The notes beneath the pieces were generated by a model. The model was not told where the DNA came from, searched no databases, and worked only from the letters and a program-made list of their open reading frames with translations. A DNA stretch of 34,786 nucleotides from IMG/VR virus record IMGVR_UViG_3300045988_092324, positions 1 through 34,786 of that record; one strand, given 5' to 3'. A program made the translations under genes and the position numbers. Source of the stretch: a virus. This document shows positions 1-33,310 of this stretch, piece by piece (the stretch's first letter is position 1; the number at the start of each line of letters is the position of its first letter).

Positions 1-77
1 TGAACGAGTGAATAGTTCCATCCCTCGGCAGTCCCGCTGCGGTCGAGCGACGGGTCGCGGCCTTGGGATACAGAATC
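1..77. repeat. Left copy of the 77-bp terminal inverted repeat
   Basis: Read directly: 1-77 is the exact reverse complement of 34710-34786 (77/77). Identity breaks at position 78 versus 34709. Confidence 0.97.
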
Positions 78-942
78 ACCATTCCATGGCCGTGCTGTAC
101 GTATCGCTCGCCCTTGCCACGACCGTTCGAAATGACTGCAGGTAGTGGCTCATGGCAGTGTTGACCGTGCTGTGTCCCAACGCCACGGCAATGTCCTCGA
201 TGGCGGCTCCGTGCTCAAGCGAGATGGTCGCCCACGAGTGGCGCAGGCATGTCATGGGCACATGCGGCAAGTCAAAGCGGCGGCAGAAAGCGCGGAATCG
301 GCGAGCGACGGTATTCGGGTCGAGCAGACACAAACGCCCAGACCTACGCGCCCCACGTATCGCACGCAGACGTTCCAACGCAAATCGCGGCAGCTTGAGC
401 CGCCTGTCGCTGAGCTTCGTCTTGCACCCCGTCTCGACCATCTTGCCGCCGACAACGTGGAGTCCGCGCTGCACATGCACCCAGCCGCTGCGCCAGTCCA
501 CATCCTCGATTCTCACCGCACACGCCTCGCAGCGCCGCAGGCCGAGCGCGGCACCCAAGAGCACAGCGGCCTCGAATGGTTGTCCGACTATCGCCTTAAG
601 CGTCACGCGCTCTTGCTCAGCCGTGAGCGTCGGTCGGCGCACCGTGGGCTTTTTCGGCAGCTCAACCCCTTGCGTTACGTCCCAGATTCTGAGCTGATGG
701 CGGCGCAATACCCATCGGTAAATCTGGCGGAAGGTCTTGTAGGCCTTTTCCGCCGCGCCGGGAAGGTCGATTCCGTCCACCCAATCTTGTACCTGCTCGA
801 ATGTGATCGTCTCTACCTCACGCTCACCCCACTGCGGCATCAGGTGGCAGCGGATGGCGCTGCGGTAGCCCTCCAGAGTGGTTGCGCGGAGGCGCTTGCC
901 CTTGTCGGCCATGTACTCGGTTACGGCTTCTGAAAACAGCAT
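76..942 (-). CDS. Small tyrosine recombinase (XerC/D-like, 288 aa); candidate DNA invertase
   Basis: Catalytic-domain signature LGLRRCEA (Arg), GCKTK (Lys), LRHSWAT (His-x-x-Arg), LGHST (His), MSHYL (Tyr), with an N-terminal SAM-like core-binding region. The stop codon (76-78) overlaps the inverted repeat by 2 nt. Confidence 0.9.
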   Translation of the reverse strand: MLFSEAVTEYMADKGKRLRATTLEGYRSAIRCHLMPQWGEREVETITFEQVQDWVDGIDLPGAAEKAYKTFRQIYRWVLRRHQLRIWDVTQGVELPKKPTVRRPTLTAEQERVTLKAIVGQPFEAAVLLGAALGLRRCEACAVRIEDVDWRSGWVHVQRGLHVVGGKMVETGCKTKLSDRRLKLPRFALERLRAIRGARRSGRLCLLDPNTVARRFRAFCRRFDLPHVPMTCLRHSWATISLEHGAAIEDIAVALGHSTVNTAMSHYLQSFRTVVARASDTYSTAMEW

Positions 943-2950: not shown

Positions 2951-3139
2951 TATCCCTCGAATATCCCAAGTGGGCGCAAAACCCTAAGTACGGTCAGCTT
3001 ATTGCGGCACTGTCAGCGAGTTTTGCCTGATGGTCAGCATCAATAGCGAGCTGCGGCAAACTGTCTCAGTACTGCCACAACTAACAGTAGGGCTTCTACC
3101 TGCGGGTTTGCGGGGGATTATCCTAACTTGTCCCAAGTG
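2950..3139. other. Candidate attP region next to the integrase 3' end
   Basis: About 170 bp non-coding between the terminator and the int stop. Imperfect direct repeats TTATCC(N7-8)TCCCAAGTG occur at 2950-2972 and 3117-3139. GGTCAGC and TGCGGCA motifs are also repeated inside. The position is classic for attP. Confidence 0.4.
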
Positions 3140-4250
3140 CGTCGAAGACGGCGCGGACGACCTGCTCGGCGGTGGGGCGGATGTAGTGCCTGCCCGACAC
3201 GCCGGGGAGGGCGTGGCCCATCAGCATCTCTATGAGGTCCCACGGCAGGCGAAGCTCGACCTCCGCTATCGTACGCCACGAGTTGCGGAGGTTCGACCAC
3301 GGGATGTGCTCAATGCCGCGGGCGGCGCAGAGTTTCCGCCAGCGGTCGTTGCATATGCCCCGGTTCATGGGCAGCCCGTCGCCCCGGTCGCTCAGCCACT
3401 CGCGGCCCTCGGCGGCGCGGGCGGCCGCTATCTCGACGAGGCGGTCGGCGGCCTGTGGCAAGATCACGATGGTGCGGGCGGACTTGGCGGTCTTGAGGGC
3501 GCCCACCGGCTCGGTGCCGGACTGCTGCATTTGGCGGCAGATGTCGGCGGAGGCGAGGACGGTGCCGCTACGCTCCCAGCGCAGTACCTCCTCGGTGCGG
3601 ACGCCCAGCGACTCGCCCGAGCGGCAGGAGCCGAAGCACGCGAGGATGAACGCGGGCTCCAGGGGGTTGCCGCGCAGTGCGTCGAGGACGCCCAGGGCCT
3701 CGTCGAGGGTGTAGACGCGCTTTGAGCGCTCGCGGGTCTTGCGGGTGGGCATGGTGTACCTGACGCTGGCGGCGAACGGGTCGAGCGGCAGGCGGATGAA
3801 GGTCGAGACGCAGGCATAGACCTTGCGCAGGGTGAGCAGGGCGGTGTCGGCGGTGGCGGCGGGCAGCGTCAGCAGCCACCCCTGCAGCTCGACGGCGCGC
3901 AGCTGGTCGACGGGCGCCTGCCCCCAGCGGGGTCCGACGTAGTTCCTCCACGAGCGCAGTACGAGGTCGCGGGTGTTGGGGGCGAGCGTCCCCGCCTCGA
4001 CCTGTGCGGCCATCTTGGGGACGAGCCACGTCTCGTAGGCCTTGGCTATGGTGGGCACGGGGACGTCGTCGGCGTGCTCGACGTGGATGCGGTCGAGTTC
4101 CGCGCACGCCTCGCGGTAGGTGCCGTACACGGTCTTGGTCTTGCGCCTGCGGCCCTGCGGCGTGTTCTGCATCCAGCGCAGGACGTACTTCTTGCCGCGC
4201 CTCATCTCGGTCACGGAGCCCCAGACGCGGCGGCGCTGCTTCTTTGTCAT
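3123..4250 (-). CDS. int: Phage integrase (tyrosine recombinase, 375 aa)
   Basis: Basic N-terminal arm-type region (MTKKQRRRVWGSVTEMRRGKKYVLRW). Catalytic signature CRSGE (Arg), LKTAKS (Lys), LRNSWRT, MGHALPG (His), GRHY (Tyr). Confidence 0.92.
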   Translation of the reverse strand: MTKKQRRRVWGSVTEMRRGKKYVLRWMQNTPQGRRRKTKTVYGTYREACAELDRIHVEHADDVPVPTIAKAYETWLVPKMAAQVEAGTLAPNTRDLVLRSWRNYVGPRWGQAPVDQLRAVELQGWLLTLPAATADTALLTLRKVYACVSTFIRLPLDPFAASVRYTMPTRKTRERSKRVYTLDEALGVLDALRGNPLEPAFILACFGSCRSGESLGVRTEEVLRWERSGTVLASADICRQMQQSGTEPVGALKTAKSARTIVILPQAADRLVEIAAARAAEGREWLSDRGDGLPMNRGICNDRWRKLCAARGIEHIPWSNLRNSWRTIAEVELRLPWDLIEMLMGHALPGVSGRHYIRPTAEQVVRAVFDALGTS

Positions 4251-5107: not shown

Positions 5108-6397
5108 TTAGGCGAGCGGGTGGAAAATGCCCCTCTCGCGCAACTTCTCGCTCGTCCGGTACTGTTCGGCGTCGGGCACGCTGTGGAACTCGACGGTCTT
5201 GTCGTAGTTCGCCTTGACGACCTCCTCGATCTCATCGAGCGACACGCGGAAGAACTCCCTGCGCTGGTTGACTATGTTCACCTTCCTGTCCTCGAAGGCC
5301 CGGTGCAGCGCTGCCTCGAGCTTCGGGGCGTCATCGCAGAAGATGAGCGCGTGCACGTCGAAATTGAACGGGACGGACGCGTCTCCGAGCTCGCGGATGC
5401 GGTCCATCGGCTCAAGGCGCCTCGTCATCCCGATCTTGTAGACGCCCTCACCGAATGAGCCGATGTTGGAGATTACGTATACGAAGCCCGCCTTCTGGTT
5501 CGCCTCTCGGTAATCGACATCCGACACCGCCCTGTCCACGTCGTCGAGCTTCGCCTTGAGCTCAGCGGCCTTCTCCTCGAGATCGGCGCGCTCGTCGTCG
5601 CCGGCATCCTTCAGGCGTGCCGAGACGTCCTTGTACGCCTTGAGGTACTGGGAGCGCTCCTTCTCGAGCTTCTTGCGCTCGGCCGCTATCTCGCGCTCGA
5701 GTTTCCGGGCCTCGCGCTCCTGCTCGCGGGCCTCGCGCAGCGCCTCCTTCTCCTCCTCTTTCTCCTGTGCGAACTCGAAGGCCAGCTGGACCTCCTCCTG
5801 CTTGAGGAGGACGTATGCGGCGGGGATGGATATGCCGAGGGTCTTGCCGTTGCGGTTGATGGCCGCGGCCGACTTCTCGATTCTCTCGAGCGAGCGCTCG
5901 ACGTTGGTCGCCTTGACCTTGCGCACGATTTCGTCGCACTCGCCGTTGTACGCCATCATGAGCAGCTTCGAGATTTCGCGGACCATCGCCTTGCCCTTCG
6001 AGGCGCTGCCGTTGACCGTCCAGGACGTCTTGTCCGCGGCCTTGCTGAAGCTCTTGACGGCCTCCTTCTGTTTCCTGCGGCATCGGTCGAGGGCGTCCTT
6101 GTAGTGAGTCGAGTCGGCGAAGTCGAAGCGCGGGCGGTACAGGCCGAACTCCTCGACCAGCAGCTCGTCATCGAGGACGCGCGACTTGGACTCCTTTGCC
6201 TTGACGATGGCATCCAGTTTGCCGTTCTGCTTCTCCAGCTTCTCGAGCGAGGCCCTCTCCTCCTCGATTCTCTTCCTGAGGCCCTCGGCCTCGCGCCTGA
6301 GCCTATCCGCGTCCGCCATCTCCGGCGTGAGCATGGACTCGAGCTCCTCTACCCGCTGCTTGTACTCGGTCGCCTTGAACATGTCCCTGAAAGCCAT
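5108..6397 (-). CDS. DUF4041 plus T5orf172 (GIY-YIG-like, MUG113) domain protein; candidate phage-defence or superinfection-exclusion nuclease
   Basis: 429 aa. N-terminal coiled coil. Central block ...WTVNGSASKGKAMVREISKLLMMAYNGECDEIVRKVKATNVE... is typical of DUF4041. The C-terminus GFVYVISNIGSFGEGVYKIGMTRRLEPMDRIRELGDASVPFNFDVHALIF...REFFRVSLDEI is typical of T5orf172. Confidence 0.8.
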   Translation of the reverse strand: MAFRDMFKATEYKQRVEELESMLTPEMADADRLRREAEGLRKRIEEERASLEKLEKQNGKLDAIVKAKESKSRVLDDELLVEEFGLYRPRFDFADSTHYKDALDRCRRKQKEAVKSFSKAADKTSWTVNGSASKGKAMVREISKLLMMAYNGECDEIVRKVKATNVERSLERIEKSAAAINRNGKTLGISIPAAYVLLKQEEVQLAFEFAQEKEEEKEALREAREQEREARKLEREIAAERKKLEKERSQYLKAYKDVSARLKDAGDDERADLEEKAAELKAKLDDVDRAVSDVDYREANQKAGFVYVISNIGSFGEGVYKIGMTRRLEPMDRIRELGDASVPFNFDVHALIFCDDAPKLEAALHRAFEDRKVNIVNQRREFFRVSLDEIEEVVKANYDKTVEFHSVPDAEQYRTSEKLRERGIFHPLA

Positions 6398-6415: not shown

Positions 6416-7051
6416 CTAATACCTTTTGACCTCGCTGGCCTGGTGCCACTTGACGACGCCGCGGAAGCTCACGCTGGCGTTCTCCGGATCGTCGAACACT
6501 ATGTCGGTGTAGCCGTCCTCGTAGCTGTCCGGCGACAGCACGAGGGTCGACGCCCCGCGGTAGTAGCTTCTAAGGATCATCTCGCCGTTGTACTCGGCCG
6601 CCACGGCGTCGCCGTTGCGCGGTTCGCACCTGGGGGAGAGCAGTGCGTTCTCGCCGTCGGCAAACCTGCGATTCATGCATGAGCCGCGCACGCGCATGAG
6701 GTAGGCGTCCGGGTCGTTGACGCGCTCGAGGACTGAGATCGGCACGTCAGCGACCTCGTCGGGACCGAATTCGTCGGTGAACTCGCCTGCGTGCCCGGCG
6801 ACGAGCACGGGCAGGGTCACGTACTGGGCGCCGTTGGGGCGCACGGCCTCCGTGGCGTCCTCTCCCATGAGGTCGGCTACCGTCGTGTTGAAGAGGTCGG
6901 CGAGTTGACGAAGGATAGGCGTCCTCGGCGTGGCGCGCCCGCTTTCCCACTGACTTACCGACGAGTAGGTAAGACCGAGCTTGTCCGCCAACTCTGCCTG
7001 CGTGAGGCCCAGCTCGTCGCGGTGTGCGCGAATCTTTTTCCCGAGGTCCAT
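6416..7051 (-). CDS. CI-like repressor: XRE-family HTH fused to an S24 (LexA-like) autopeptidase domain
   Basis: N-terminus IRAHRDELGLTQAELADKLGLTYSSVSQWESGR (HTH_3). The C-terminal domain has a GSCM Ser motif and a downstream Lys (VVKW). Divergent from a cro-like gene. Confidence 0.9.
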   Translation of the reverse strand: MDLGKKIRAHRDELGLTQAELADKLGLTYSSVSQWESGRATPRTPILRQLADLFNTTVADLMGEDATEAVRPNGAQYVTLPVLVAGHAGEFTDEFGPDEVADVPISVLERVNDPDAYLMRVRGSCMNRRFADGENALLSPRCEPRNGDAVAAEYNGEMILRSYYRGASTLVLSPDSYEDGYTDIVFDDPENASVSFRGVVKWHQASEVKRY

Positions 7052-14921: not shown

Positions 14922-15216
14922 CTCGAGGGTCGGAGGCTACCCGATGGGGGTGACCGACGCCACGATAGAGCGCTGCTACGGCGGCACCCGTGAGCCTAGG
15001 ATGTGCGGGAACTGCAGGCATTTCTGCGGCAGCGACATCCACGCCGACTACGGCTACTGCCGCCTCGAGTTCGAGCGAGTCTACGACACGGAGGCGCCGG
15101 GGCGCAAGGAGGGCTTCTGGCGGCTGGCGCAGTGGGCCGTGGCGTGGCTCATGGGGAACCTGCTGTACTGCGAGGACGAGTGCGGCGAGTGCCGCGACTA
15201 CGAGGGGATTGAATGA
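14914..15216 (+). CDS. Small Cys-rich protein (100 aa)
   Basis: ATG at 14914 (MSDSRVGG...). Cys motifs are MCGNCRHFCG...YCRLEF...CEDECGECRDYE. Confidence 0.6.
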   Translation: MSDSRVGGYPMGVTDATIERCYGGTREPRMCGNCRHFCGSDIHADYGYCRLEFERVYDTEAPGRKEGFWRLAQWAVAWLMGNLLYCEDECGECRDYEGIE

Positions 15217-15608
15217 TGAACATCGACATCAAGACAGCCGACGGCAAGGACATCGAGTTTGGCGGGACGTATTACGACGGGGCGGGTGCCCGTTATCGCG
15301 TGACCGGTATCAGGGTCCCCGACCATCAATTTCTCGCCAAATCGAAGCTCTACTGCATCAAGGAAGGAAGCGGCCCCGTATTGACGAATCCAGGCAGTCT
15401 CTATCTTGCCCCACCGGACAGCCTGGAGAAGCTGAGAGACGATCTGGACAGGTATGTCCGCAATCCAAATGGAACCATCTGCTCGTATTTCAATCGAGAG
15501 AGAAAGGATTGCGATGGCTGTAAGTTCCGGAACAACATCTTCTGCATCAACGCCTTGGTGCAAGACATCGACGAGCGCGTCCACCGTCTGTGCGGTGATG
15601 GCAAATGA
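15213..15608 (+). CDS. Accessory protein, paralogue 1 (131 aa)
   Basis: ATGA overlap. C-terminal block PDSLEKLRDDLDRYV...C.YF....CDGC is shared with the next gene. The drop in GC begins here. Confidence 0.65.
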   Translation: MMNIDIKTADGKDIEFGGTYYDGAGARYRVTGIRVPDHQFLAKSKLYCIKEGSGPVLTNPGSLYLAPPDSLEKLRDDLDRYVRNPNGTICSYFNRERKDCDGCKFRNNIFCINALVQDIDERVHRLCGDGK

Positions 15609-16021
15609 TCAAGCTGCCGAAAGATGCCGAGGGCCGCGAGATTCCGCTGGATACCGAGGTGCTGTATGACGAGTGCGGAACAAAGGTGAGCGTGAAGGAG
15701 TTTCTATCCAGAACGTTGGTGGAGAGCCAGAAAACCGAATGGACGATTAAAGCCCAGTACGAAGGCAACTTTTACTACAACAGCTTCAAGCCGAAGAACA
15801 TGCACCTCACTCTGCCAGACACATGGGAGAAGCTGGAGGAGGACTTGGGAAGAGCGGCAGAACGCGATGTTGTTCCGACGTGCTGCCGATACTTCAACGC
15901 CGCCAACAAATGCAACGTTTGTCCGCTTTATGGCAGCGTTAACTGTGATGCGCATAGTGACGAGCGTGCATTTGAGAACATTCTCGACCGTATCCGCAAG
16001 CTGAGGGGCGAGGACAAATGA
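15605..16021 (+). CDS. Accessory protein, paralogue 2 (138 aa)
   Basis: PDTWEKLEEDLGRAA...CCRYF...CNVC...ILDRIRKLRGE parallels the preceding protein. Confidence 0.65.
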   Translation: MIKLPKDAEGREIPLDTEVLYDECGTKVSVKEFLSRTLVESQKTEWTIKAQYEGNFYYNSFKPKNMHLTLPDTWEKLEEDLGRAAERDVVPTCCRYFNAANKCNVCPLYGSVNCDAHSDERAFENILDRIRKLRGEDK

Positions 16022-16275
16022 ACATGACGCCATGCTGGATTTCCGAAATGCCCGGAGAGAAGACGAAAGCGCTGCTTATGGGTTTCTACCAAAAAGCGTG
16101 GACGCATGATGCATCGCCCCTAATCGGAGGGTTTCCCGCAGGGCAAATCGCGTACCCGGTCGCGGTCGTGCTGCTCGAATCGGGCGATGTTGTTACCGTA
16201 AACGCTGAATGCGTGACTATCGACTCGCCCGCAGAACTGTTTGAGCAGTACGCATGGATGGATGGTGAGGCCTGA
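16018..16275 (+). CDS. Hypothetical protein (85 aa)
   Basis: Overlapping start and stop, in the lower-GC island. Confidence 0.55.
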   Translation: MNMTPCWISEMPGEKTKALLMGFYQKAWTHDASPLIGGFPAGQIAYPVAVVLLESGDVVTVNAECVTIDSPAELFEQYAWMDGEA

Positions 16276-16460
16276 TGGACAAAATCAAGCTGAAACCCTG
16301 TCCGTTCTGTGGTGGCGATGCCGAGATGCAGCAGGGCAAGTATCAAGGTCTGTGCACCTTCTACGTGAGCTGCTTGGGATGCGGCGCACGGACGGACCTA
16401 GAGTACGCCGAGGAGTTCGCTGCAGATCTATGGAATGAAAGGGTGAGCTATGTTGAATAA
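16275..16460 (+). CDS. lar: Lar-family restriction-alleviation-like zinc-ribbon protein
   Basis: 61 aa. Hallmark LKPCPFCGG...C..CGA...A..LWNER. Confidence 0.7.
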   Translation: MDKIKLKPCPFCGGDAEMQQGKYQGLCTFYVSCLGCGARTDLEYAEEFAADLWNERVSYVE

Positions 16461-16779
16461 GCGAGCGATGATTTCACAGCCTATGGCTGGTAAGACAGAC
16501 GAGGAGATCGCGGAGGCGAGGGACAAGGCACACGCCAAGCTGCGCGAGATGGGCTACGAGTTCGTAAACACCCTGTTCACCGACGAGTGGTACAGCGACG
16601 AGGCCATGGAGGAGCGCGGCGTGGTGCAGGTCCCGCTCTGCTATCTCGCGAAATCTCTTGAGAACATGAGCCTGTGCCATGCGGCCTACTTCTGCAAAGG
16701 CTGGGAAAACGCACGCGGATGCCGCATCGAGCATGATGCCGCCGTCGCGTACGGGCTTGAGGTGCTGTATGAGGGTTAG
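16450..16779 (+). CDS. DUF4406 / nucleoside 2-deoxyribosyltransferase-like protein
   Basis: MISQPMAGKTDEEI N-terminus and C-terminal CKGWENARGCRIEHDAAVAYGLEV. The pattern is typical of this family. Confidence 0.5.
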   Translation: MLNKRAMISQPMAGKTDEEIAEARDKAHAKLREMGYEFVNTLFTDEWYSDEAMEERGVVQVPLCYLAKSLENMSLCHAAYFCKGWENARGCRIEHDAAVAYGLEVLYEG

Positions 16780-16975
16780 CAATGAAGAGCGCCGCGAGGT
16801 GGCCGAGAATTTGCGAAACCTTACAATCGGCTACTTCATCCAGTACAAGGAGCAGTTCTTTGACGAGCTCGCCGAGGTGGTGGTCGGCTTCGAGGACTAC
16901 CACGACTTCAATGTTGTCCTCGAAAAGCTCGCCGACCTCATCGACCCGGAAGGGGGAGGCGATGATTACCGATAA
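16769..16975 (+). CDS. Hypothetical protein (68 aa)
   Basis: ATG at 16769 (MRVSNEERREVAENLRN...). Preferred over the Ser/Thr-rich N-terminal extension of the overlapping 16782 ORF. Confidence 0.5.
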   Translation: MRVSNEERREVAENLRNLTIGYFIQYKEQFFDELAEVVVGFEDYHDFNVVLEKLADLIDPEGGGDDYR

Positions 16976-17363
16976 GCAGCGCCGCAAGGCCGTCGATTTC
17001 CTGCGCTCAGGCAAGTGCTTGTACTTTGCCGAGCACCGGAAAACGGAGCTCGACTGTAGCCGGTGCATGAAGGTGAGCACGATGCTTTTCGGCCACTACG
17101 ATGCACTTTGCGATTTGGACAGCTGCGGGACCGATACATGGCAGAGATTGGCAGACCTAATCGACCGCCCGACCTGCTACGACCTTGTCGAGCACAAGCA
17201 GGATCCGTTCATCCCGGGCAAGCGGATGGTCGACGGCTACTTCCACTGTTCCGACTGCGGATGGGATGGGCAGATCTGGGAGCATATCGGCTTCGGGGAC
17301 ATGCTTGCGTATGAAGCCGTCCATTGCCCGAAGTGCGGGGCCAGAATCGAGCGCCGTGCGTGA
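16962..17363 (+). CDS. Zinc-ribbon protein (133 aa), related motif to the 15213/15605 paralogues
   Basis: ATG at 16962 with GGGGGAGG upstream. Carries the TDTWQRLADLIDRPTC motif and a C-terminal HCSDCGW...HCPKCGA. Confidence 0.6.
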   Translation: MITDKQRRKAVDFLRSGKCLYFAEHRKTELDCSRCMKVSTMLFGHYDALCDLDSCGTDTWQRLADLIDRPTCYDLVEHKQDPFIPGKRMVDGYFHCSDCGWDGQIWEHIGFGDMLAYEAVHCPKCGARIERRA

Positions 17364-18386: not shown

Positions 18387-19613
18387 ATGCCGCTCACGAG
18401 GATGCAGCGCGAGTACCTCGCCAACTGCACGCACCGCTACAACGTGAAGTGCGGGGCGACGGGCTCGGGCAAGAGCTACGTCGACATAGCCGTGACCATA
18501 CCGCAGAGGCTTCTCGCCATGAGGGGCGAGGGGCTGGCGGTGATGATAGGCAACACCCGCTCGACGCTCGAGCGCAACATCCTCGAGCCGATGCGCTCGC
18601 TCTACAGCGAGGACGTCGTCAGCCAGATCGGGCGGGACAACACTGCCCGGATATTCGGGCGCAAGGTCTACTGCCTCGGGGCGGACAAGAAGACGAGCGT
18701 ATCCAAGATTCAGGGCGCCACGTTCGAGTGGGTCTACGGCGACGAGGTCGCCACGTGGAGCGAAGACGTGTTCCAGATGCTCAAGAGCCGCCTGCGCTGC
18801 GAGCACAGCCGATTCGACGGCACCTGCAACCCCGACAGCCCCAACCACTGGTTCAAGCGGTTCCTCGACGGCGACAGCGACATCTACAGGCAGGACTACA
18901 CGATCTGGGACGGTGCGCTGGCACCGGATGTCATCGAGGCCCTCATCAAGGACTACGGCAGCGGCGTGTACTACGACCGCTACATCCTGGGCAAGTGGAC
19001 GCTGGCCGAGGGCCTGGTCTACCCCGGGTGGGAGGGTGCCCTAGAGAGCCGGTATGCGGGCGGCGCCGCCAAGTACGCGGTGTCTTGCGACTACGGAACT
19101 CAGAACGCCTTTGCGGCGCTTCTGTGGGCGTTTGACGGCCGTGTGTGGCACGTGGTGGACGAGTACCGCTACTCGGGCCGCGACACGGGGCACCAGAAGA
19201 CGGACGCCGACTACGTGGCCGACATGGCCGACTTCGTGCGCGGGCTGGGCAAGCCGCCCACGTTCATCATCGACCCGAGCGCCACGAGCTTCATCGCCGC
19301 GATGCGGCAGGCCGGGTTCAAGACCAAGAAGGGGCGCAACGACGTCGCGGACGGCATACGGGAGACGGGGGTGTGCCTGGGCAACGGCGCGGTGCGCATC
19401 TCCGACGCCTGCGCGGGGCTGATAGGCGAGCTCGGCGGCTACTGCTGGGACGCCAAGGCCGACGGCGACAGGCCCGTCAAGGTCGAGGACCACAGCTGCG
19501 ACGCGCTCCGTTACGGCGTGGCGACACTGCGCATGTACAAACCGCAGAAACAGCAGGTAAACCCGCTGTTCGATAGGGAAGGGAGGGGCCGATGGCAGAC
19601 GGCCCGATCGTGA
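18387..19613 (+). CDS. terL: Terminase large subunit (PBSX/Terminase_3-like)
   Basis: Walker A GATGSGKS. 408 aa, with a C-terminal nuclease-region acidic motif (VEDHSCDALRY). Confidence 0.92.
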   Translation: MPLTRMQREYLANCTHRYNVKCGATGSGKSYVDIAVTIPQRLLAMRGEGLAVMIGNTRSTLERNILEPMRSLYSEDVVSQIGRDNTARIFGRKVYCLGADKKTSVSKIQGATFEWVYGDEVATWSEDVFQMLKSRLRCEHSRFDGTCNPDSPNHWFKRFLDGDSDIYRQDYTIWDGALAPDVIEALIKDYGSGVYYDRYILGKWTLAEGLVYPGWEGALESRYAGGAAKYAVSCDYGTQNAFAALLWAFDGRVWHVVDEYRYSGRDTGHQKTDADYVADMADFVRGLGKPPTFIIDPSATSFIAAMRQAGFKTKKGRNDVADGIRETGVCLGNGAVRISDACAGLIGELGGYCWDAKADGDRPVKVEDHSCDALRYGVATLRMYKPQKQQVNPLFDREGRGRWQTARS

Positions 19614-21028
19614 CGGCGGCTGACATGGCGGCGGCGGGCTCGGCGGCGGGGTTCGCCGCGGACGCCGTGAGGCGCCACATGGCCGGCGAGATGTACCGCA
19701 ACGCCGTGGCGGCCAACGACTACTACCGCCAGCAGAACGTGACCATCAGCAGGTTCACCAAGATCGTGTACTCGAGCGCCGGCACGCCGGTCGACGACTA
19801 CACGGCGTCGGACATGCGAATCAAGTCCAACCTGTTCAAGCGCCTGAACGGGCAGCGCTGCTCATACTCGCTCGGCAAGGGCGTGAGCTTCGTCGACGTC
19901 TCGAAGGGCGGCGAGGACACCACCAAGGAGGCGCTGGGCGACCGCTTCGACGACGACGTGATGAAGATAGGCCTTTACGCGCTCATCCACGGCATCTCGT
20001 TCCCGTTCTGGAACCTCGACCACATCGACGTGTTCACCGCCGACGAGTTCTGCCCGGTGTGGGACGAGGTGAGCGGCGCGATGGTGGCCGGCGTGCGCTT
20101 CTGGCGCCTGGACCCGGACCACCCGTGGAACGCCACGCTCTACGAGCAGGACGGCTACACGCAGATGGCGGCCCCGGCCGCCGGCACGCTCGACTTCGCC
20201 GTGACGGAGGCGAAGCGCGCCTACAAGGTGACCTACGAGGAGGTGCCGGCCGACGGCCTCGCGCTGGCCGTTGACGAGGAGAACTACTCGCGCCTGCCCA
20301 TCGTGCCCGTGTGGGGCAGCGACGCGCACCAGTCCACGCTCGTGGGCATGCGCGGGGGCATCGACGCCTACGACATGATCAAGAGCGGCCTGTGCAACGA
20401 CGTCAACGACTGCGCGCAGGTCTACTGGATAGTCAACGGCGCCGGCGGCATGGACGACCGCGAGCTCGACCTTTGGCGCGCCAAGCTCAAGCTGACGCAC
20501 GTGGCGCAGGTCGACGCCGAGCAGGGGCAGGCCGCGACGCCGTATGTGCAGGAGGTGCCCGTGGCGAGCCGCCGCGAGACGCTGGCCCAGATAAAGGCCG
20601 ACATCTACGAGGACTTCGGCGCGCTCGACGTGCACACCATCGCCGCCGGCGCGACCAACGACCACATCGACGCCGCATACCAGCCGCTCGACGAGGAGGC
20701 CGCGGAGTTCGAGCGCCACATGCGAGAGGGCATCATGGACCTGCTCGCGCTCCAGGGCATCGAGGACACGCCGATCTTCACCCGCACGCGCATCAGCAAC
20801 ACCAAGGAGCAGATCGAGAACGTGTGCCTGGAGGCCGAGTGGCTCGACGAGGAGACCATCCTGCGCAAGCTGCCGAACATCACGCCCGACGAGGCCGCCG
20901 AGATTTTGGAGCGCAAGCGGCGGGAGCAGGAGGAGCGCATGGCAGCGCTGCCGCCGGCGCTCGCTGCCAACGCGACGGGGGCCGCGGGTACAGACGACGA
21001 CAGCGACGACGGGGACGGCGAGGAGTAG
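19592..21028 (+). CDS. Portal protein (SPP1 gp6-like)
   Basis: 478 aa immediately after TerL. RBS GGAAGGGAGGGG. Acidic C-terminus DDDSDDGDGEE. Confidence 0.88.
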   Translation: MADGPIVTAADMAAAGSAAGFAADAVRRHMAGEMYRNAVAANDYYRQQNVTISRFTKIVYSSAGTPVDDYTASDMRIKSNLFKRLNGQRCSYSLGKGVSFVDVSKGGEDTTKEALGDRFDDDVMKIGLYALIHGISFPFWNLDHIDVFTADEFCPVWDEVSGAMVAGVRFWRLDPDHPWNATLYEQDGYTQMAAPAAGTLDFAVTEAKRAYKVTYEEVPADGLALAVDEENYSRLPIVPVWGSDAHQSTLVGMRGGIDAYDMIKSGLCNDVNDCAQVYWIVNGAGGMDDRELDLWRAKLKLTHVAQVDAEQGQAATPYVQEVPVASRRETLAQIKADIYEDFGALDVHTIAAGATNDHIDAAYQPLDEEAAEFERHMREGIMDLLALQGIEDTPIFTRTRISNTKEQIENVCLEAEWLDEETILRKLPNITPDEAAEILERKRREQEERMAALPPALAANATGAAGTDDDSDDGDGEE

Positions 21029-21031
21029 CGC

Positions 21032-22762
21032 ATGGCCGCGGACGAGGCCCACGAGTTCTCAGACGCCGAGATTCGGGCGTTCGAGCGCGAGGTGGCGGGA
21101 GTGTACGGCGAGGCGGGCAAGACTGTATACGCCAACCTCAAGCGCTATCTGGCGCAGTTCGAGGCCGACGACGAGAAGATGCGCGGGCGTCTCGAGGCCG
21201 GCGAGATCACCAAGGCTCAATACAGGTCTTGGCGAAGCGGGAAGATAGCGGCCGGCAGGCGCTACCGAATCGTCCTCAAGCAGTGCGCCGAGGCCATGAC
21301 GCACGCTAACGTCGTCGCAGCCGCCGCCATCGAGGGCAGGCTGCCCGAGGTCTACGCCGAGAACTACAACTACGGCACGTGGCAGGTCGAGAGCGCCGTG
21401 GGCTGGGACACGTCATTCGCGCTGCAGGACGCCTCGACCGTGCAGAGGCTGCTCACCGACCACGACAGCTACCTGCCCAAGCCGTCCGTCAACGTCGCCA
21501 AGGACATGGCGTGGAACCGCCGGCTCATCGCCAACCAGATCACGCAGGGCGTGCTGCTCGGCGAGTCGATACCCAAGATAGCCAAGCGCATGCAGGACGT
21601 GACGGGGGCGAACCGCGCGGCGGCGGTGCGCTTGGCGCGGACCTCGACGACGGCGGCGGAGAACGCCGGGCGCGTCGACAGCTACAAGAGGGCCAAGGGG
21701 CTCGGCATCAAGGTGCAGCAGGAGTGGCTGGCGACGATGGACGGCCGCACGCGCTCGAGCCACAGGAAGCTCGACGGCGAGAAGGTCGAGGTCGGGGAGA
21801 AGTTCAGCAACGGGTGCCGCTATCCCGGCGACCCGGAGGCGCCGTATGCCGAGACGTGCAACTGCCGCTGCACGCTCATCGCGGCCGTGGATGGCGTGGA
21901 CTACAGCGACGGCAAGCGCTGGAGCAGGCTGCCCGAGGGCATGACCTACGAGGAGTGGAAGGCCGGCAAGCCCGCCGTCACAGGCGCCAAACCGGCCGAC
22001 CGCACCATCTCCGAGTTCATGGGGATGCCCGGCACGGCCCGCAAGCTCGACGCCGCTGGCGTGTCGCCGACCGAGGCGAGAAAGAGGCTCACCGAGCAGC
22101 TCAAGGAGTACGGCATACCGTCCGGCTCGTTCCGCAAGATGAGCGCGGGCGACCAGCAGAAGGTGCTGGACACGGCGCTGGCGACGGAGAGGGGTATCAC
22201 CTCGAAGCGACATTCGGCCCGCGGCTCGAAGGTCAACATGGACCTCGTGAAGTCGGACGGCTACGCCGCGAAGTTCTCGAAGCTGGACATGCCGAGGGAT
22301 GCCGCCGCGTCTGTCCGCAAGTCGGCGGTCGCCATGCTGTCGCACCGCTCTGGAAGCGATCTCGAGGACCTCGTCCTCGTGTCGAAGTCCGATGGCAGGG
22401 TGGTCGCGCGGAGCACGGCCGGAACGGTTCCGTTCGAGACCGCCAGAAACGCGGAAGTCGACAGGGCCATCTCGACACATCCGCGCGGAGACCTCGTCTC
22501 GGTCCATAACCACCCGACCGACCTGCCGCCGACGGGCAGCGACTTCGTCTCGGCGGGCTACAAGGGATACGGCGGCGGCGTCGTGGCCCTGCACAACGGC
22601 GAGGTGTTCTATTACGAGGTGGGGGACATTCCATTTAGAGTCGAGTCCTTCGACAACAAGGTCGAGAATAAAGTTAAAATGGGGACAAGCAGGTATGACG
22701 CCATTATCGAAGTCATGCGCGAGTTTGAGAGGAGCCATGGCATCAAATGGGAAAAGCTATAG
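21032..22762 (+). CDS. MuF / SPP1 gp7-like head morphogenesis protein with a C-terminal RadC/JAB-like extension
   Basis: The MuF core is RLARTSTTAAENAGRVDSYKRA...WLATMDGRTRSSHRKLDGE...ETCNCRCTL. The C-terminal 150 aa carry EDLVLVSKSDGRVVA...GDLVSVHNHPTDLPPTGSDFVS (HxH...T/SxxD). Confidence 0.85.
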   Translation: MAADEAHEFSDAEIRAFEREVAGVYGEAGKTVYANLKRYLAQFEADDEKMRGRLEAGEITKAQYRSWRSGKIAAGRRYRIVLKQCAEAMTHANVVAAAAIEGRLPEVYAENYNYGTWQVESAVGWDTSFALQDASTVQRLLTDHDSYLPKPSVNVAKDMAWNRRLIANQITQGVLLGESIPKIAKRMQDVTGANRAAAVRLARTSTTAAENAGRVDSYKRAKGLGIKVQQEWLATMDGRTRSSHRKLDGEKVEVGEKFSNGCRYPGDPEAPYAETCNCRCTLIAAVDGVDYSDGKRWSRLPEGMTYEEWKAGKPAVTGAKPADRTISEFMGMPGTARKLDAAGVSPTEARKRLTEQLKEYGIPSGSFRKMSAGDQQKVLDTALATERGITSKRHSARGSKVNMDLVKSDGYAAKFSKLDMPRDAAASVRKSAVAMLSHRSGSDLEDLVLVSKSDGRVVARSTAGTVPFETARNAEVDRAISTHPRGDLVSVHNHPTDLPPTGSDFVSAGYKGYGGGVVALHNGEVFYYEVGDIPFRVESFDNKVENKVKMGTSRYDAIIEVMREFERSHGIKWEKL

Positions 22763-22938
22763 ACTATGACTCCTTTGGGGTCGACGACCGACCGGATAGG
22801 CTCTCCGACGTTCCCGATGAGGCCCTCGAAGCCCTGCTCGAGGACGAGCGCCAAAATCCGCCGAAAACATGGGAAGAGGCATGGCGCCGCAGCATCGACT
22901 GGGAGCTCGAGCACGGCGTCAGGAGCACTAATGGCTAA
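22747..22938 (+). CDS. Small acidic protein (63 aa)
   Basis: RBS GAGAGGAG. Overlaps the MuF 3' end by 16 nt. Highly acidic (DVPDEALEALLEDERQ). Confidence 0.6.
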   Translation: MGKAIDYDSFGVDDRPDRLSDVPDEALEALLEDERQNPPKTWEEAWRRSIDWELEHGVRSTNG

Positions 22939-23272
22939 GAACGACTACCACGTGATCGTCTACCGCATCCTCCTGTACCTCTATACGTGCCTGAAGGGCG
23001 GGGAGGACGTCGACCCCAAGAGGCTCGACGAGATCGCCCTCGCCGCAGGCGCGAACGAGCGGTACTGGCACTACATCCTGTGCAGCCTGCTCGACTACGG
23101 ATTCATCTCGGGGGCGGTCAGGGTCGAGGTCGACAACACGTTCGACCGCGTCTACGGCCTCGACGGCGCCTGCATCACGCCCCGCGGCATCGAGTACCTG
23201 ACCGACAACTCCTTCATGGCCAAGGTGAGGAAGTTCCTCAAGGAGGCCAAGGACATAGACCCGTTCATCTGA
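22931..23272 (+). CDS. YjcQ-like winged-helix protein (113 aa)
   Basis: ATG at 22931 with AGGAG upstream. ITPRGIEYLTDNSFMAKVRKFLKE matches the YjcQ-family C-terminal pattern. Confidence 0.65.
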   Translation: MAKNDYHVIVYRILLYLYTCLKGGEDVDPKRLDEIALAAGANERYWHYILCSLLDYGFISGAVRVEVDNTFDRVYGLDGACITPRGIEYLTDNSFMAKVRKFLKEAKDIDPFI

Positions 23273-23355: not shown

Positions 23356-23577
23356 ATGAACCCCATAACCGAATGTAAGCGATGCTCCGACTGCGCCATC
23401 AGGCTCGGCTTCGGCTTCACCCAGCCCGACGTGCTGATATGCACCGTGCGAGGCGACGATGTGGGGCCGGGCGACGGCTGCACCATGGGCATCCCCGGTG
23501 AGCCCGTGCAGGCCGTCGAGGCGTGCGAGGTAGACGTGTCCGGCCGCGTCGGCTACGGCACGGAGGTGCTGGACTGA
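23356..23577 (+). CDS. Small Cys-rich protein (73 aa)
   Basis: RBS GAGGGAGG. Cys motifs are ECKRCSDC...ICTV...GCTMG. Confidence 0.55.
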   Translation: MNPITECKRCSDCAIRLGFGFTQPDVLICTVRGDDVGPGDGCTMGIPGEPVQAVEACEVDVSGRVGYGTEVLD

Positions 23578-24050
23578 TGGCCGCGCCGCGAAGGGTCGGC
23601 AAGGAGAAGTGGAGCGCCAAGAACGACACGTGGACTGACCGAAACGGCGTCGTCACGGAGGGCATGGGCGAGAAGGGCTTTACCAGGGGCACCGCCAAGG
23701 GCCTGCTCGCCTCCGACATCTCCGGCCTCGTCGAGATACGGCAGGACAACCGCGAGGCCATCGCCGACGCCATCGACCGGGCGCTCGTCGCCGCGCTGGA
23801 GGAGGTCGGCCTCGCCGCGGAGGGCTACGCCAAGCGCGCCTGCCCGGTCGACACGGGCCGCCTCCGCAACTCAATCACCCACATCCTCGACGAGGGCACC
23901 CGCCACGTCATCATCGGCACGAACGTCGAGTACGCGCCCTACGTCGAGCTGGGGACGAGGCACCAGAGGCCGCAGCCGTTCCTAAAGCCGGCCGCCAACG
24001 ACCACTACTCCACGTACAAGGGAATCTTCCTCAAGCACCTCCGCGGCTAG
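23577..24050 (+). CDS. HK97 gp10-family head-tail component
   Basis: KRACPVDTGRLRNSI...IGTNVEYAPYVELGTRHQRPQPFLKPA is the gp10-family signature. TGATG coupling to the upstream gene. Confidence 0.75.
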   Translation: MAAPRRVGKEKWSAKNDTWTDRNGVVTEGMGEKGFTRGTAKGLLASDISGLVEIRQDNREAIADAIDRALVAALEEVGLAAEGYAKRACPVDTGRLRNSITHILDEGTRHVIIGTNVEYAPYVELGTRHQRPQPFLKPAANDHYSTYKGIFLKHLRG

Positions 24051-30376: not shown

Positions 30377-31184
30377 TATCGAATATGAATCGGGCATGGG
30401 GGCGGTCATCCCGCTCAATTCCGGCATCTACGTCGGCAGGCCGAACGACCTCTTCAGCCGCGAATGGGACTACAAGATCGGGTACCGCGCGCTGTCGACC
30501 GCATCGCGCGGCGCCCGCAAGGCCTCGTTCAGGGCGGTCTTCGCCGACATGGGGCTGGCCGACGAGTTCCGCCGCTGCGCGGACCTCGACGTCTCGGGCA
30601 ACACGCCCGGGACGCTGAGGGTCGGGGACTGGTTCCAGCGCTGCCTCGTCCTCGCGTCGAAGGTCGACGGGGTGCGGGACGGGCTCTTCACCGCGAAGAT
30701 CACCGTCGTGCTGCTCGACGGCCTGTGGCGCAGGGGCGTCACGACGGAGTTCGCGCCCGTCAACGGCTCGTCCGGGTACGAGTTCCTCGACCTGCCGCAT
30801 GATTTGCCGTACGACCTAGGCGTGACCCCACCGCTGCAATACGCCATCAACCCAGGCTACTCCGGCAGCCCCGCGAAGTTTGTCGTGTACGGGCCCGCGG
30901 TCAACCCTTCTGTGCGCCTGGCTGGCAATCTGTACCAGGTGGACGTGACCGTTCCCGAGGGCGGTTACATGGATATCGACCCATTGCGGCGCACCGTCAC
31001 CGTTGTCGCCGCAGACGGCACCACGATGGACGCCTTCGGCAAGGCGCACCGAGGCAGCGGGGCAGGCTCGGGAGAGTACATCTTCGAGCGCGTGCCGGCC
31101 GGCACCTGCGAGGTCTCGTGGGACAACAGCTTCGGCTTCGACCTGACGCTCTACGAGGAGGAGGGGGAGCCGGCATGGTCCTAG
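30369..31184 (+). CDS. Distal tail protein (Dit-like)
   Basis: ATG at 30369 overlaps the tape measure stop. 271 aa, in the canonical position. Confidence 0.7.
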
Positions 31185-33310
31185 TGGTGAGCGACCCGGC
31201 GGCCGGGGACGTCCGCGAGATCGAGGACTTCGAGCTCGACCTCGCGTTCGGCAGCGACGAGAACGCCCTGAAGCTCGAGGCGCGCGCCGGCGAGGCCCCC
31301 GCCGAGGGGCATCTCGTGTTCATCGACGGGACCGAGTACGGCGGCGTCGTCGACGAGGTCGCCTACGAGGCGGGCAGGGAGGCCTCCGGCACCGTCCTGT
31401 GCAAGGGCCGCACGTGGCACGGCATCCTGGCGGGCAAGCGCCTGCTCCCCGACTCGGGCAGCGGGTACCTCGCGGTGAGCGGCAAGGCGGGCGAGGTGCT
31501 CGCGTCCCTCATATCCCGCATGGGGCTGTCCGGGCTGTTCTCGGCAGCCGTGGACGATACGGCGGTCAGCTATACCTTCGACCGCTTCGCGGACGGGTAC
31601 GGCGGCCTGAAGGCCCTGGCGGAGGCGAACGGGCGCAAGGTCTCGATGCGCCGCCTAGGCGGCAAGGTCGAGCTATCGCTGCCCCCGGTCGTCGACTACG
31701 CGGACAAGGTCGACTCGGACCTGCTCGACTTCACGCTGACGAGCGTCCACCGCTGCGTCAACCATCTGGTGTGCGCCGGCACGGGCGAGCTCGAGAACCG
31801 CGCCGTGGTCCATTTCTACGCCGACGCGGCGGGCAACGTCAGCCACACCCAGAGCCTCTTCGGCGTCGACGAGATATGCGCGCTCTACGACTACAGCAAC
31901 GCCGACGAGGCGAAGCTCGAGGAGGAGGGCGGCAAGAAGCTCAGGGAGTACCAGACCCGGGGCAGCGTCGAGGTCGACGCGCACGAGGATATCGACGTCG
32001 ACGTCGGCGACATCATCTCGGCGCGCGACAACGCGCACGGCAGGACCGTCAGCGCGACCGTGGTGAAGAAGATCGTGCAGGTCTCGCGCGGCGTGGCAAC
32101 GTATAGGTATGAGGTCGGCAGCGAGACCACGACGAAGAACTCGTCCAGCGCGATCGCCGACGGAGGTGGCGGGCACGCTTACCTGGCGGGAAAGGGCCTG
32201 AAGCTCGAGAACTACACGTTTAGTGCGGAGGTCGACGCGGAATCGCTCAAGGCCGTTGAGGCCAAGGCCGACAAGGCCGTAACAGACGCCTCAAGCTCGC
32301 TCCAGACGTGGGCGCAGGCGGATATCGCCATGGGAGAAGTGTCAACGCTCACGGAAGGCTCTAAGGCCACCGCTTCGCTCTCAGGCGAAGGGCTGGTCAA
32401 GACACTCTCGCTCGGAATTCCACGCGGCGCGACCGGCATCCAGGGTCCGAGGGGCGAACGCGGGGCCACTGGTCCCCAAGGCCCGCAGGGAATCAAGGGT
32501 GACACCGGCGCGACAGGCTCGCAGGGACCTACGGGACCACAAGGCCCCAAGGGAGCCACTGGTCCGCAGGGTCCCAAGGGAGACACGGGCGAGCAGGGAC
32601 CGCAGGGCGTTCAGGGAAAGCAGGGGCCGCAGGGCATACAGGGCGAGACGGGGCCGCGCGGTCCGCAGGGATTGCAGGGCATCCAAGGTCCCAAGGGAGA
32701 CACGGGCGAGGGCTTCTCCATCTCGAAGGTATACGCGAGCTACGACGCGATGCGGGCGGGGTGGAAGACGGACGGCGTGAAGGTCGGCGGGTTCGCGGTC
32801 ATCGGCTCGAATGTCGAGGACCCGCACAACGCCGAGCTGTACGTGAAGTCGGCAGACGGCTACTCGCTGATCGCCGACATGAGCGGCGCGACCGGCGTCA
32901 AGGGCGAGCAGGGCCCCACGGGCCCGCAGGGCCCGGTCGGCGCGACCGGAGCGGCGGGGGCAACTGGGCCGCAAGGCCCGAAGGGAGCCACCGGCGCAAC
33001 CGGTCCGCAGGGCCCCAAGGGCGAGACGGGGGCAACCGGCGCGACCGGCGCGAAGGGCGCGACCGGCCCCACGGGGCCGCAGGGCGTGAAGGGCGAGCAG
33101 GGCGAACGCGGCCCGCAGGGTATACAGGGCCCGAAGGGCGAGAAGGGCGAGCGCGGCGACTCGGGCGTCACCGTACCGCTGTCGGGGTTCTTCTCGCTGA
33201 CGGTGGACGCCGACGGCAACCTCTGGTCGCACGTGGCGGACGGGGCGGCAGCCCCGCCGCTCTCATACGACTCGTCCACTGGCGAGCTTTACTATGAGAT
33301 AGGTGAATAA
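31175..33310 (+). CDS. Tail-tip/fibre protein: Sipho_Gp37-like N-terminus plus two collagen-like (G-X-Y) blocks
   Basis: ATG at 31175 after GAGGAGGAGGGGG. The N-terminus is [33 protein letters not shown] runs lie at 32426-32710 and 32885-33166. Confidence 0.8.
32426..32710 (+). repeat. Collagen-like G-X-Y triplet block 1 (95 triplets)
   Basis: Uninterrupted GGN-NNN-NNN periodicity ([28 protein letters not shown]...). Confidence 0.95.
32885..33166 (+). repeat. Collagen-like G-X-Y triplet block 2
   Basis: [34 protein letters not shown]...GERGDSG. Confidence 0.95.

Follow-up and report, generated by a model that had tools for sequence, protein, structure and literature searches.

A MuF head protein of a temperate siphophage ends in a divergent JAB-type domain: a candidate packaged effector with a small partner gene

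The stretch of DNA analysed here, hereafter the window, is the IMG/VR virus record IMGVR_UViG_3300045988_092324 at its full length of 34,786 nt. It is apparently the whole genome of a temperate siphophage (34.8 kb, GC 0.656). One of its late genes encodes a 576 aa protein in which a MuF head protein is fused to a C-terminal domain resembling the JAB/RadC superfamily, and the stop codon of this gene is overlapped by a short open reading frame (ORF), orf63. The locus consists of the following parts, in which GC3 stands for the GC content of third codon positions.

21032-22762 (+): MuF-JAB fusion gene, 576 aa (ORF list; Phage_Mu_F on an identical metagenomic contig)
21527-21880 (+): Phage_Mu_F domain (MuF1, SPP1 gp7-like), aa 166-283 (PF04233, TIGR01641, PHROG head families)
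21881-22186 (+): linker, aa 284-385, with native GC3 (0.90-0.95) and partly conserved in close relatives
22187-22210 (+): boundary motif ERGITSKR, aa 386-393, conserved in fused family members
22187-22759 (+): JAB/RadC-like C-terminal domain, aa 386-576 (folded part about aa 403-576)
22343-22369 (+): H438-R439 ... E445-D446, a catalytic-type Glu with near-invariant HR and D
22505-22543 (+): HNHPTDLPPTGSD, aa 492-504, with H492, H494, T501 and D504 in the pattern HxH-x6-[ST]-x2-D
22747-22938 (+): orf63, 63 aa, acidic with a net charge of -9 (positional homologues, composition)

The C-terminal 176-190 aa gave no match when searched directly against Pfam, NCBIfam, PHROGs, PADLOC and the sequences of the PDB. 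A k-mer homologue search retrieved five close fragments only, and the family was reached by an exhaustive HMMER screen with a small profile. This identified 932 representative clusters (50% identity) with an E-value of at most 1e-3, and 546 with an E-value of at most 1e-10, most of which are represented by proteins of 500-600 aa with the match at the C-terminus. Conservation was determined in an alignment of 385 unique members that extends down to approximately 22% identity; they came from the representatives, from another homologue search and from 66 viral and 80 genomic loci. E445, which with D446 is encoded by 22364-22369, is Glu in all 376 members aligned at this position, H492 and H494 are both His in 385 out of 385 and D504 is Asp in 384 out of 385. 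Position 501 is Ser in 280 and Thr in 99 members (379 out of 385, 98%), with Ser as the majority state. Several other residues are nearly as constant: P500 (384/385), H438 (96%), R439 (93%), D446 (96%), H521 (97%) and Y528 (97%). The family hence shows the conserved Glu, HxH, Ser/Thr and Asp of the JAB/JAMM superfamily.

The first-pass annotation, made from the sequence alone, had pointed out an E-D pair followed by an HxH-x6-T-x2-D string, and both are found at aa 445-446 and 492-504, the latter spelled H492-N-H494-PTDLPP-T501-GS-D504. Its remark that this is one residue shorter than the canonical motif and has Thr for Ser is exact when the string is set beside the Escherichia coli YicR/RadC motif HNHPSGCAEPSKAD, which reads x7-S-x2-D. 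The x6 spacing is found throughout the family and the canonical HxH-x7-S-x2-D is not. This non-canonical spacing, together with Thr for Ser in the window protein, might point to a motif that arose by chance or to an MPN-minus domain, JAB-like but inactive or structural. We consider this hardly credible, since Glu, both His and Asp are invariant or virtually so across 385 members as distant as 22% identity and the Ser/Thr position, at 98%, has Ser in the majority. The motif is therefore no product of chance and the domain is very unlikely to be dead.

RadC was the sole Pfam family matched recurrently. In relaxed single scans nine out of 39 diverse members matched it, all below threshold and with a best E-value of 0.005; Prok-JAB and DUF4329, which corresponds to Tox-JAB-2 (PMC3482391), were matched once each, and in all 11 out of 39 matched related families. 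The 576 aa protein has no match to PF04002 RadC even at E-values up to 5 and cannot be assigned to that family by the Pfam threshold. In a profile search of the PDB, the HNHP...D segment aligns with RadC 2qlc with a gap of one residue (E-value 0.08). A comparison by hhalign with a profile of 39 YicR/RadC JAB sequences yielded a probability of 89% (P 2e-6), and a deeper query of 109 sequences yielded 87.5% (P 3.6e-6), compared with 0.8% (P 0.066) for a control with a column-reversed template. The alignments with RadC span 31-41 columns around the motif, again with a one-residue gap, and concern homology at the level of the superfamily rather than family membership.

Two AlphaFold2 (AF2) models agree with this. 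The first, based on six sequences, has a predicted local distance difference test score (pLDDT) of 81; its top PDB matches in a Foldseek screen include RadC, PfJAMM1 and BubCD, interspersed with cytidine and cytosine deaminases, which have the same fold. The second, based on 109 sequences, has a pLDDT of 94 and a predicted template modelling score (pTM) of 0.89. Its best Foldseek match is PfJAMM1 (5ld9; probability 0.99, TM 0.57 on target, root mean square deviation (rmsd) 4.5 A), and RadC 2qlc is matched with a probability of 0.84 and TM 0.50; over both models the probability for RadC is 0.84-0.93. In the numbering of the modelled piece, the second model has strands at 61-65, 71-75, 102-108, 129-134 and 139-143 and helices at 88-96 and 116-125, which gives the order strand-strand-helix-strand(HxH)-helix(T..D)-strand-strand. 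E445 lies just before strand 61-65, HNH ends strand 102-108 and helix 116-125 follows T115 and contains D118, all elements and the latter two residues in piece numbering. The model hence shows the deaminase-like core fold of JAB proteins with HxH at the end of a strand and S/T-x-x-D at the N-terminus of the next helix, and extra helices flank this core on both sides. Two other readings of the domain were rejected. Matches to yeast cytosine deaminase, which for the second model are interleaved with those to PfJAMM1 and RadC, are of low probability with an rmsd of 12-13 A, and the H/C-x-E...PCxxC motif of deaminases is absent; reading the 'HNH' as that of an HNH endonuclease is ruled out by the fold.

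The relationship with RadC/JAB that had been proposed is favoured by both the profile searches and the predicted structure, be it as JAB-like, and in the model the order of elements places the putative metal-binding residues as in a JAMM site. Since there is no single strong match, the assignment of the JAB fold is based on the convergence of weak signals and the invariance of the motif. Judged by profiles and models, the domain appears to be a clade of its own in the JAB superfamily, with RadC and Tox-JAB as its nearest neighbours, and not a member of RadC (PF04002); it is predicted to be a divergent JAMM/RadC-like metal-dependent hydrolase in which all catalytic residues are present. With RadC/YicR (PF04002, 2qlc) it shares the fold class and the E...HNHP...[ST]xxD constellation, but its spacing is x6 instead of x7 and the models add an N-terminal helical segment with the HR motif as well as two C-terminal helices and a strand. 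It also lacks the helix-hairpin-helix (HhH) N-domain (PF20582) present on many YicR relatives and, unlike RadC, has an obligatory partner gene of minute size. JAMM/MPN+ isopeptidases (PfJAMM1 5ld9, Cap3, BubCD 9ea4) have the same metal-ligand pattern and provide, with PfJAMM1, the best structural match, yet identity is 17%, the spacing differs and the loci examined contain no partner genes for ubiquitin-like, E1 or E2 proteins. Tox-JAB toxins (2012, PMC3482391) are similar in concept, in that a divergent JAB module serves as the C-terminal toxin, nucleic acid is the predicted target and an immunity gene follows downstream. However, they are carried by RHS, type II (T2SS), type VI (T6SS) or type VII (T7SS) secretion system proteins with Imm65 or Imm-NTF2, whereas the domain described here is carried by MuF and portal proteins with a 42-70 aa partner, and the two families show no significant sequence match; one member has a weak match to DUF4329.

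The partner in the window is orf63. It starts with ATG, shares 16 nt with the end of the MuF-JAB gene and has GGAG 12 nt upstream. An ORF of 42-70 aa that starts -37 to +8 nt from the stop codon of the domain gene was found in 76 out of 80 genomic loci, compared with 21 out of 233 (9%) when the same test was applied to control genes of at least 150 aa in those loci. In four loci where the domain is encoded alone (hereafter solo), a 43-52 aa ORF starts 1-2 nt after each domain gene. The small ORFs of the 80 genomic loci form one clear family with the consensus ..KEYFIDDRVIIPE.IK.M[ST].EE..AEI.RLE.EA..., and this Clostridial family is found behind solo and MuF-fused copies alike. The small partner ORFs have no match in Pfam, PHROG or PADLOC. 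A possible identity as a ribbon-helix-helix antitoxin was considered and found no support in Pfam.

The four closest relatives of the window's C-terminal domain (80, 66, 48 and 46% identity) have orf63 homologues at the same overlapping position, which share DD[RL]P...E.L...NPPK[ST]W.EA..W; one of these ORFs, at locus L159, is absent from the source gene annotation. Searches by jackhmmer started from orf63 and from the YjcQ-like gene that follows it identified no relatives in the 66 IMG/VR loci, nor did a profile built from the small ORFs of IMG/VR detect orf63. On the basis of the sequence comparisons, the partners of the different clades may form a single, divergent family. The YjcQ-like gene was discarded as a member of the cassette: it has a native GC3 of 0.95 and, though present behind the two closest relatives (L157 and L158), is absent behind L159 and L160. 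The swapped cassette envisaged in the first-pass annotation hence holds in as far as the domain moves with a downstream gene, but it comprises one such gene, orf63, and not two.

The structural match with PfJAMM1, a deubiquitinase-type JAMM (0.99), and that of the first model with BubCD, bring forward a different function. A capsid-borne or late-expressed JAB isopeptidase could strip conjugates of the ubiquitin-like or CD-NTase type (Bil/Bub-like, type II CBASS) or degrade a signalling nucleotide; the small ORF would then serve as a chaperone or regulator. Counter-defence of this kind would be compatible with delivery alongside the DNA or with late expression beside structural proteins, and all biochemically characterised JAB domains are isopeptidases (PMC5512222). 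We nevertheless regard it as rather unlikely that this is the function, given that no ubiquitin-like, E1 or E2 genes lie beside any copy examined and that the sequence signal is on the side of RadC and Tox-JAB, argued to lack the groove for a ubiquitin tail (PMC5512222, PMC3482391). In addition, a coupled partner in 95% of loci, solo copies included, is more like the inhibitor of a harmful enzyme. Since the closest solved structure is an isopeptidase, deconjugation directed at ubiquitin-like defence is still a live alternative.

Where the cassette begins can be read from the solo copies. Their proteins start at a motif E-x-QRYGRNK of which ERGITSKR is the counterpart, which fixes the 5' boundary of the cassette at aa 386-393; pLDDT is low here in both models and the boundary motif is probably flexible. 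The linker upstream of it is retained in the truncated relatives P0009 and P0325. The profile search retrieved many solo versions of about 189-198 aa on long contigs, and the four solo loci that were examined lie among housekeeping genes (murJ, purC, response regulators, ABC transporters). A scan with one genome per species identified the 80 genomic loci, mostly in metagenome-assembled genomes (MAGs) of Oscillospiraceae, Ruminococcus and Lachnospiraceae, with R. bromii ATCC 27255 among the Ruminococcus loci and several copies in some genomes. Short solo genes make up 51 of these 80 copies, and their chromosomal contexts are syntenic between MAGs. Domain and stop-overlapping small ORF together are, as far as sequence can tell, a mobile two-gene cassette.

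Three observations concern individual copies. Three solo copies, each with a small partner, occur in a single Clostridia MAG, Lapin-030__bin80 (L076, L080, L083), and another three in MAG SC0389_S3_11 (L111, L129, L138), which suggests paralogous expansion as is seen for toxin-antitoxin (TA) or immunity modules. At L159 (ENA ERZ27245998 k119_103702, 3001-4170) and L160 (3001-4217) the MuF genes are 5'-truncated inside the MuF domain but retain the linker, the JAB domain and an orf63-like ORF, and they adjoin chromosomal genes (prfA-prmC; a Nitro_FeMo-Co gene); they look like decayed prophages that have selectively retained the cassette. Solo member P0342 is labelled 'ribonuclease HI' by the Joint Genome Institute (JGI) with no RNase H domain recorded, probably an annotation error.

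The phage copies are found on various carriers. In 64 out of 66 IMG/VR loci the domain ends a head protein of 540-598 aa, which contains Phage_Mu_F (PF04233, MuF1) in some and Phage_min_cap2 (PF06152, the 'MuF2' of PMC5576092) in others; the loci with C-terminal domains closest to that of the window are included here. Among the ten longest representatives eight are MuF2 fusions, and P0019 is a fusion with a portal protein (Phage_portal, PF04860). A search of BFVD with a model of the domain retrieved 'minor capsid proteins' from uncultured gut siphophages, matched at their C-termini with TM up to 0.91, and phage RadC and MPN proteins lower in the list. By its sequence distribution, the domain has been grafted at least three times onto portal-site or capsid-interior proteins.

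The solo copies allow for another origin of the association, in which a cellular TA or abortive-infection-type module was captured by phages and its fusion to MuF or portal proteins is incidental or keeps the toxin inert. The preponderance of short solo genes (51/80), several per genome and in contexts syntenic between MAGs, fits this, as does the retention of the cassette by truncated prophage remnants. We think it distinctly improbable, since fusion occurred independently with three capsid-interior carriers and always at the C-terminus, a pattern difficult to account for unless packaging was selected for. PADLOC gave no matches either.

The carrier part of the window protein is a MuF1 domain. 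The PF04233 match at aa 166-283 has an E-value of 4.8e-20 and 72.8 bits, compared with a gathering cut-off of 29.6, TIGR01641 phageSPP1_gp7 is matched with an E-value of 2.3e-14 (53.7, cut-off 39.65) and the PHROG matches of the protein are to head-morphogenesis and minor-head families. This agrees with the earlier placement of the end of the MuF core near residue 290. The MuF1 proteins of Butyrivibrio virus Ceridwen (620 aa) and Flavonifractor phage Chenonceau (433 aa) are approximately 40% identical over aa 4-313 and have unrelated C-termini. Since one and the same domain is found on MuF1, MuF2 and portal proteins and the C-termini of the nearest MuF1 relatives are unrelated, the idea of cargo on a carrier, put forward in the first-pass annotation for MuF proteins with variable C-termini, is supported. 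The gene lies directly 3' of the portal gene, inside the packaging and head module.

This position, together with the absence of a called prohead protease gene between the portal and the major capsid protein, could point to a morphogenetic peptidase that acts in the procapsid on scaffold, capsid or MuF protein and replaces the missing protease. PHROG 595, 'head maturation protease', even matches the N-terminal 349 aa of the protein, but this match leaves the JAB domain uncovered. SPP1-type heads assemble without a protease. Since solo domains with their partner lie among housekeeping genes without phage genes nearby, and the phages with the most similar head module are without the domain, we judge a morphogenetic role very unlikely.

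The arrangement resembles that of the MuF polymorphic toxins described from temperate phages by Jamet et al. (2017), whose accessible text (PMC5576092) is followed here. They share a MuF1 or MuF2 N-terminus encoded after the portal gene, a variable enzymatic C-terminus, a small ORF directly downstream, a temperate phage and relatives of the gut Firmicutes type. SPP1 gp7 is described there as binding the portal, with one or two copies per capsid, and the small downstream ORFs as proposed immunity genes. The window protein and its relatives likewise combine a conserved carrier N-terminus with interchangeable C-terminal domains, and a small cognate downstream ORF moves along with the latter. Nucleases, metallopeptidases, ADP-ribosyltransferases and RelA-like domains are the toxin domains that this text names; the domain described here is not among them and would fall in its class of extensions without a known domain. 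Unlike the MuF toxins, it is also abundant in solo chromosomal cassettes. Fusions to MuF and portal proteins are interpreted as injected effectors in the work on polyvalent proteins (Iyer et al. 2017, PMC5512222), in which RadC domains of prophage polyvalent proteins are reported as well.

Base composition was compared as in-frame GC3. It is 0.93-1.0 over the MuF core and linker. For the C-terminal domain it is 0.82-0.87 at first and drops to 0.73-0.77 over the final 60 codons. It is 0.69 in orf63, 0.95 in the YjcQ-like gene and at least 0.86 in the remaining structural genes; the 5' end of the MuF-JAB gene also falls to 0.82-0.88. The lower GC that had been noticed for the end of the gene and the two genes downstream is hence found for the gene end and orf63 but not for YjcQ, the lower total GC of which is due to its amino-acid composition. 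Within the structural module no patch is lower than this dip, but the window as a whole has lower ones. A patch that comprises the 3' part of the domain and orf63 suggests, on composition, acquisition from a donor with lower GC, because it matches the unit of domain plus partner and the Clostridial relatives have approximately 40-50% GC.

Taken together, we consider it fairly probable that the locus encodes a packaged JAB-type effector or toxin and its cognate partner, in the form of a mobile two-gene cassette. The cassette exists alone in chromosomes of gut Clostridia and, in phages, is grafted onto MuF1, MuF2 and portal carriers. If SPP1 gp7 and the MuF-toxin hypothesis are taken as analogies, a few enzyme copies would be positioned at the portal within the capsid by the MuF part, from where they would enter the next host together with the DNA and act in the newly infected cell. 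Coupled translation of the same late transcript would yield the small partner, and in the producing cell or the lysogen orf63 may neutralise the enzyme by binding to it. The weakest step is the substrate; instead of ubiquitin-like tails, our guess would be a nucleic acid or something nucleotide-linked, in keeping with proposals for RadC and Tox-JAB; activity directed at nucleic acids is favoured because the domain is near RadC and Tox-JAB.

Several points weigh against this interpretation. Matches to solved JAB structures are marginal (Foldseek E-value about 1e-2, HMM against PDB 0.08). The profile of the Clostridial partner family fails to detect orf63, and comparisons by hhalign among the three partner groups give P-values of 7e-5, 5e-4 and 2e-3 with probabilities of 63, 32 and 12%, colinear but weak. 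The GC3 dip is modest, at about the 5th percentile of 60-codon windows. Finally, the solo chromosomal cassettes could mean that the primary role is cellular, TA-like or in defence, rather than phage offence.

A search of the literature for an explicit description of MuF-JAB proteins retrieved general statements in PMC5512222 and PMC3482391 only. The concept, RadC domains in polyvalent proteins and MuF or portal proteins as carriers of effectors, has already been described. New with respect to the libraries and papers searched are this JAB clade, its x6 motif, the small partner and the dual existence as solo gene and capsid cargo. Whether the pair constitutes an uncatalogued family of toxin and immunity or effector and inhibitor proteins, which occurs both solo in gut Clostridia and as capsid cargo on MuF1, MuF2 and portal proteins, can be proposed only tentatively. 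Cargo fused to MuF or portal proteins is thought to be injected ahead of gene expression and few examples have been characterised, while what RadC-type JAB domains do biochemically has been a matter of dispute for decades ('RadC, a misleading name?', cited in PMC5512222). With a JAMM-type site, a coupled small partner and three capsid carriers, the locus offers a tractable pair for the study of activity, inhibition and delivery. Its main value would be as a handle on RadC-type JAB function: if the interpretation is correct, a selectable phenotype and a cognate inhibitor could reveal the biochemistry, either that of a metal-dependent nuclease or nucleotide hydrolase or that of an injected deconjugase that disarms ubiquitin-like defence. 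In gut phages and Clostridia, many genes now listed as hypothetical or as 'minor capsid protein' could be annotated as well.

The genes around the MuF-JAB gene and orf63 in the late region are as follows.

18387-19613: large terminase (gene calls and Pfam on the identical metagenomic contig)
19592-21028: SPP1-type portal, SPP1_portal (gene calls and Pfam on the identical metagenomic contig)
22931-23272 (+): YjcQ-like gene (PF09639, E-value 1e-15; phrog_3675)
23577-24050 (+): HK97-gp10-like head-tail connector

After orf63 the late genes are, in order, the YjcQ-like gene, a 73 aa ORF, the HK97-gp10-like gene, the scaffold and an SU10-type major capsid protein. The start of the YjcQ-like gene overlaps the stop of orf63 by 8 nt, which places it between the MuF/orf63 pair and the HK97-gp10-like gene. 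The latter precedes the scaffold and major capsid genes rather than following them, an order also found in Ceridwen and Chenonceau.

Elsewhere in the window are genes for integrase-like proteins, a CI-type repressor with helix-turn-helix (HTH) and S24 domains, RecT, a single-stranded DNA-binding protein (SSB) and an amidase endolysin; by its integrase and CI-like repressor genes, the phage is classified as temperate. Two tyrosine-recombinase-like genes (PF00589) are present in this one 35-kb phage, at 76-942 (-), with a SAM-like N-domain, and at 3123-4250 (-), where the match to PF00589 is only weak (E-value 2e-4). In the lysogeny region, 5108-6397 (-) encodes a 429 aa protein with DUF4041 and T5orf172/MUG113 (GIY-YIG-like) domains that adjoins the CI-like repressor (6416-7051) and is possibly a gene for defence or exclusion carried by the prophage. 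The window has its largest low-GC3 patch at 15213-17363 (+), just upstream of the terminase region, where genes have a GC3 of 0.62-0.78, compared with about 0.9 or higher elsewhere. It contains small accessory genes, among them a Lar-type restriction-alleviation gene (PF14354, 16275-16460) and a DUF4406 gene (16450-16779) and looks like a moron or anti-restriction island. A large ORF for a tail or fibre protein, at approximately 31118-33310 (+), has collagen-like repeats (PF01391 on the matching contig).

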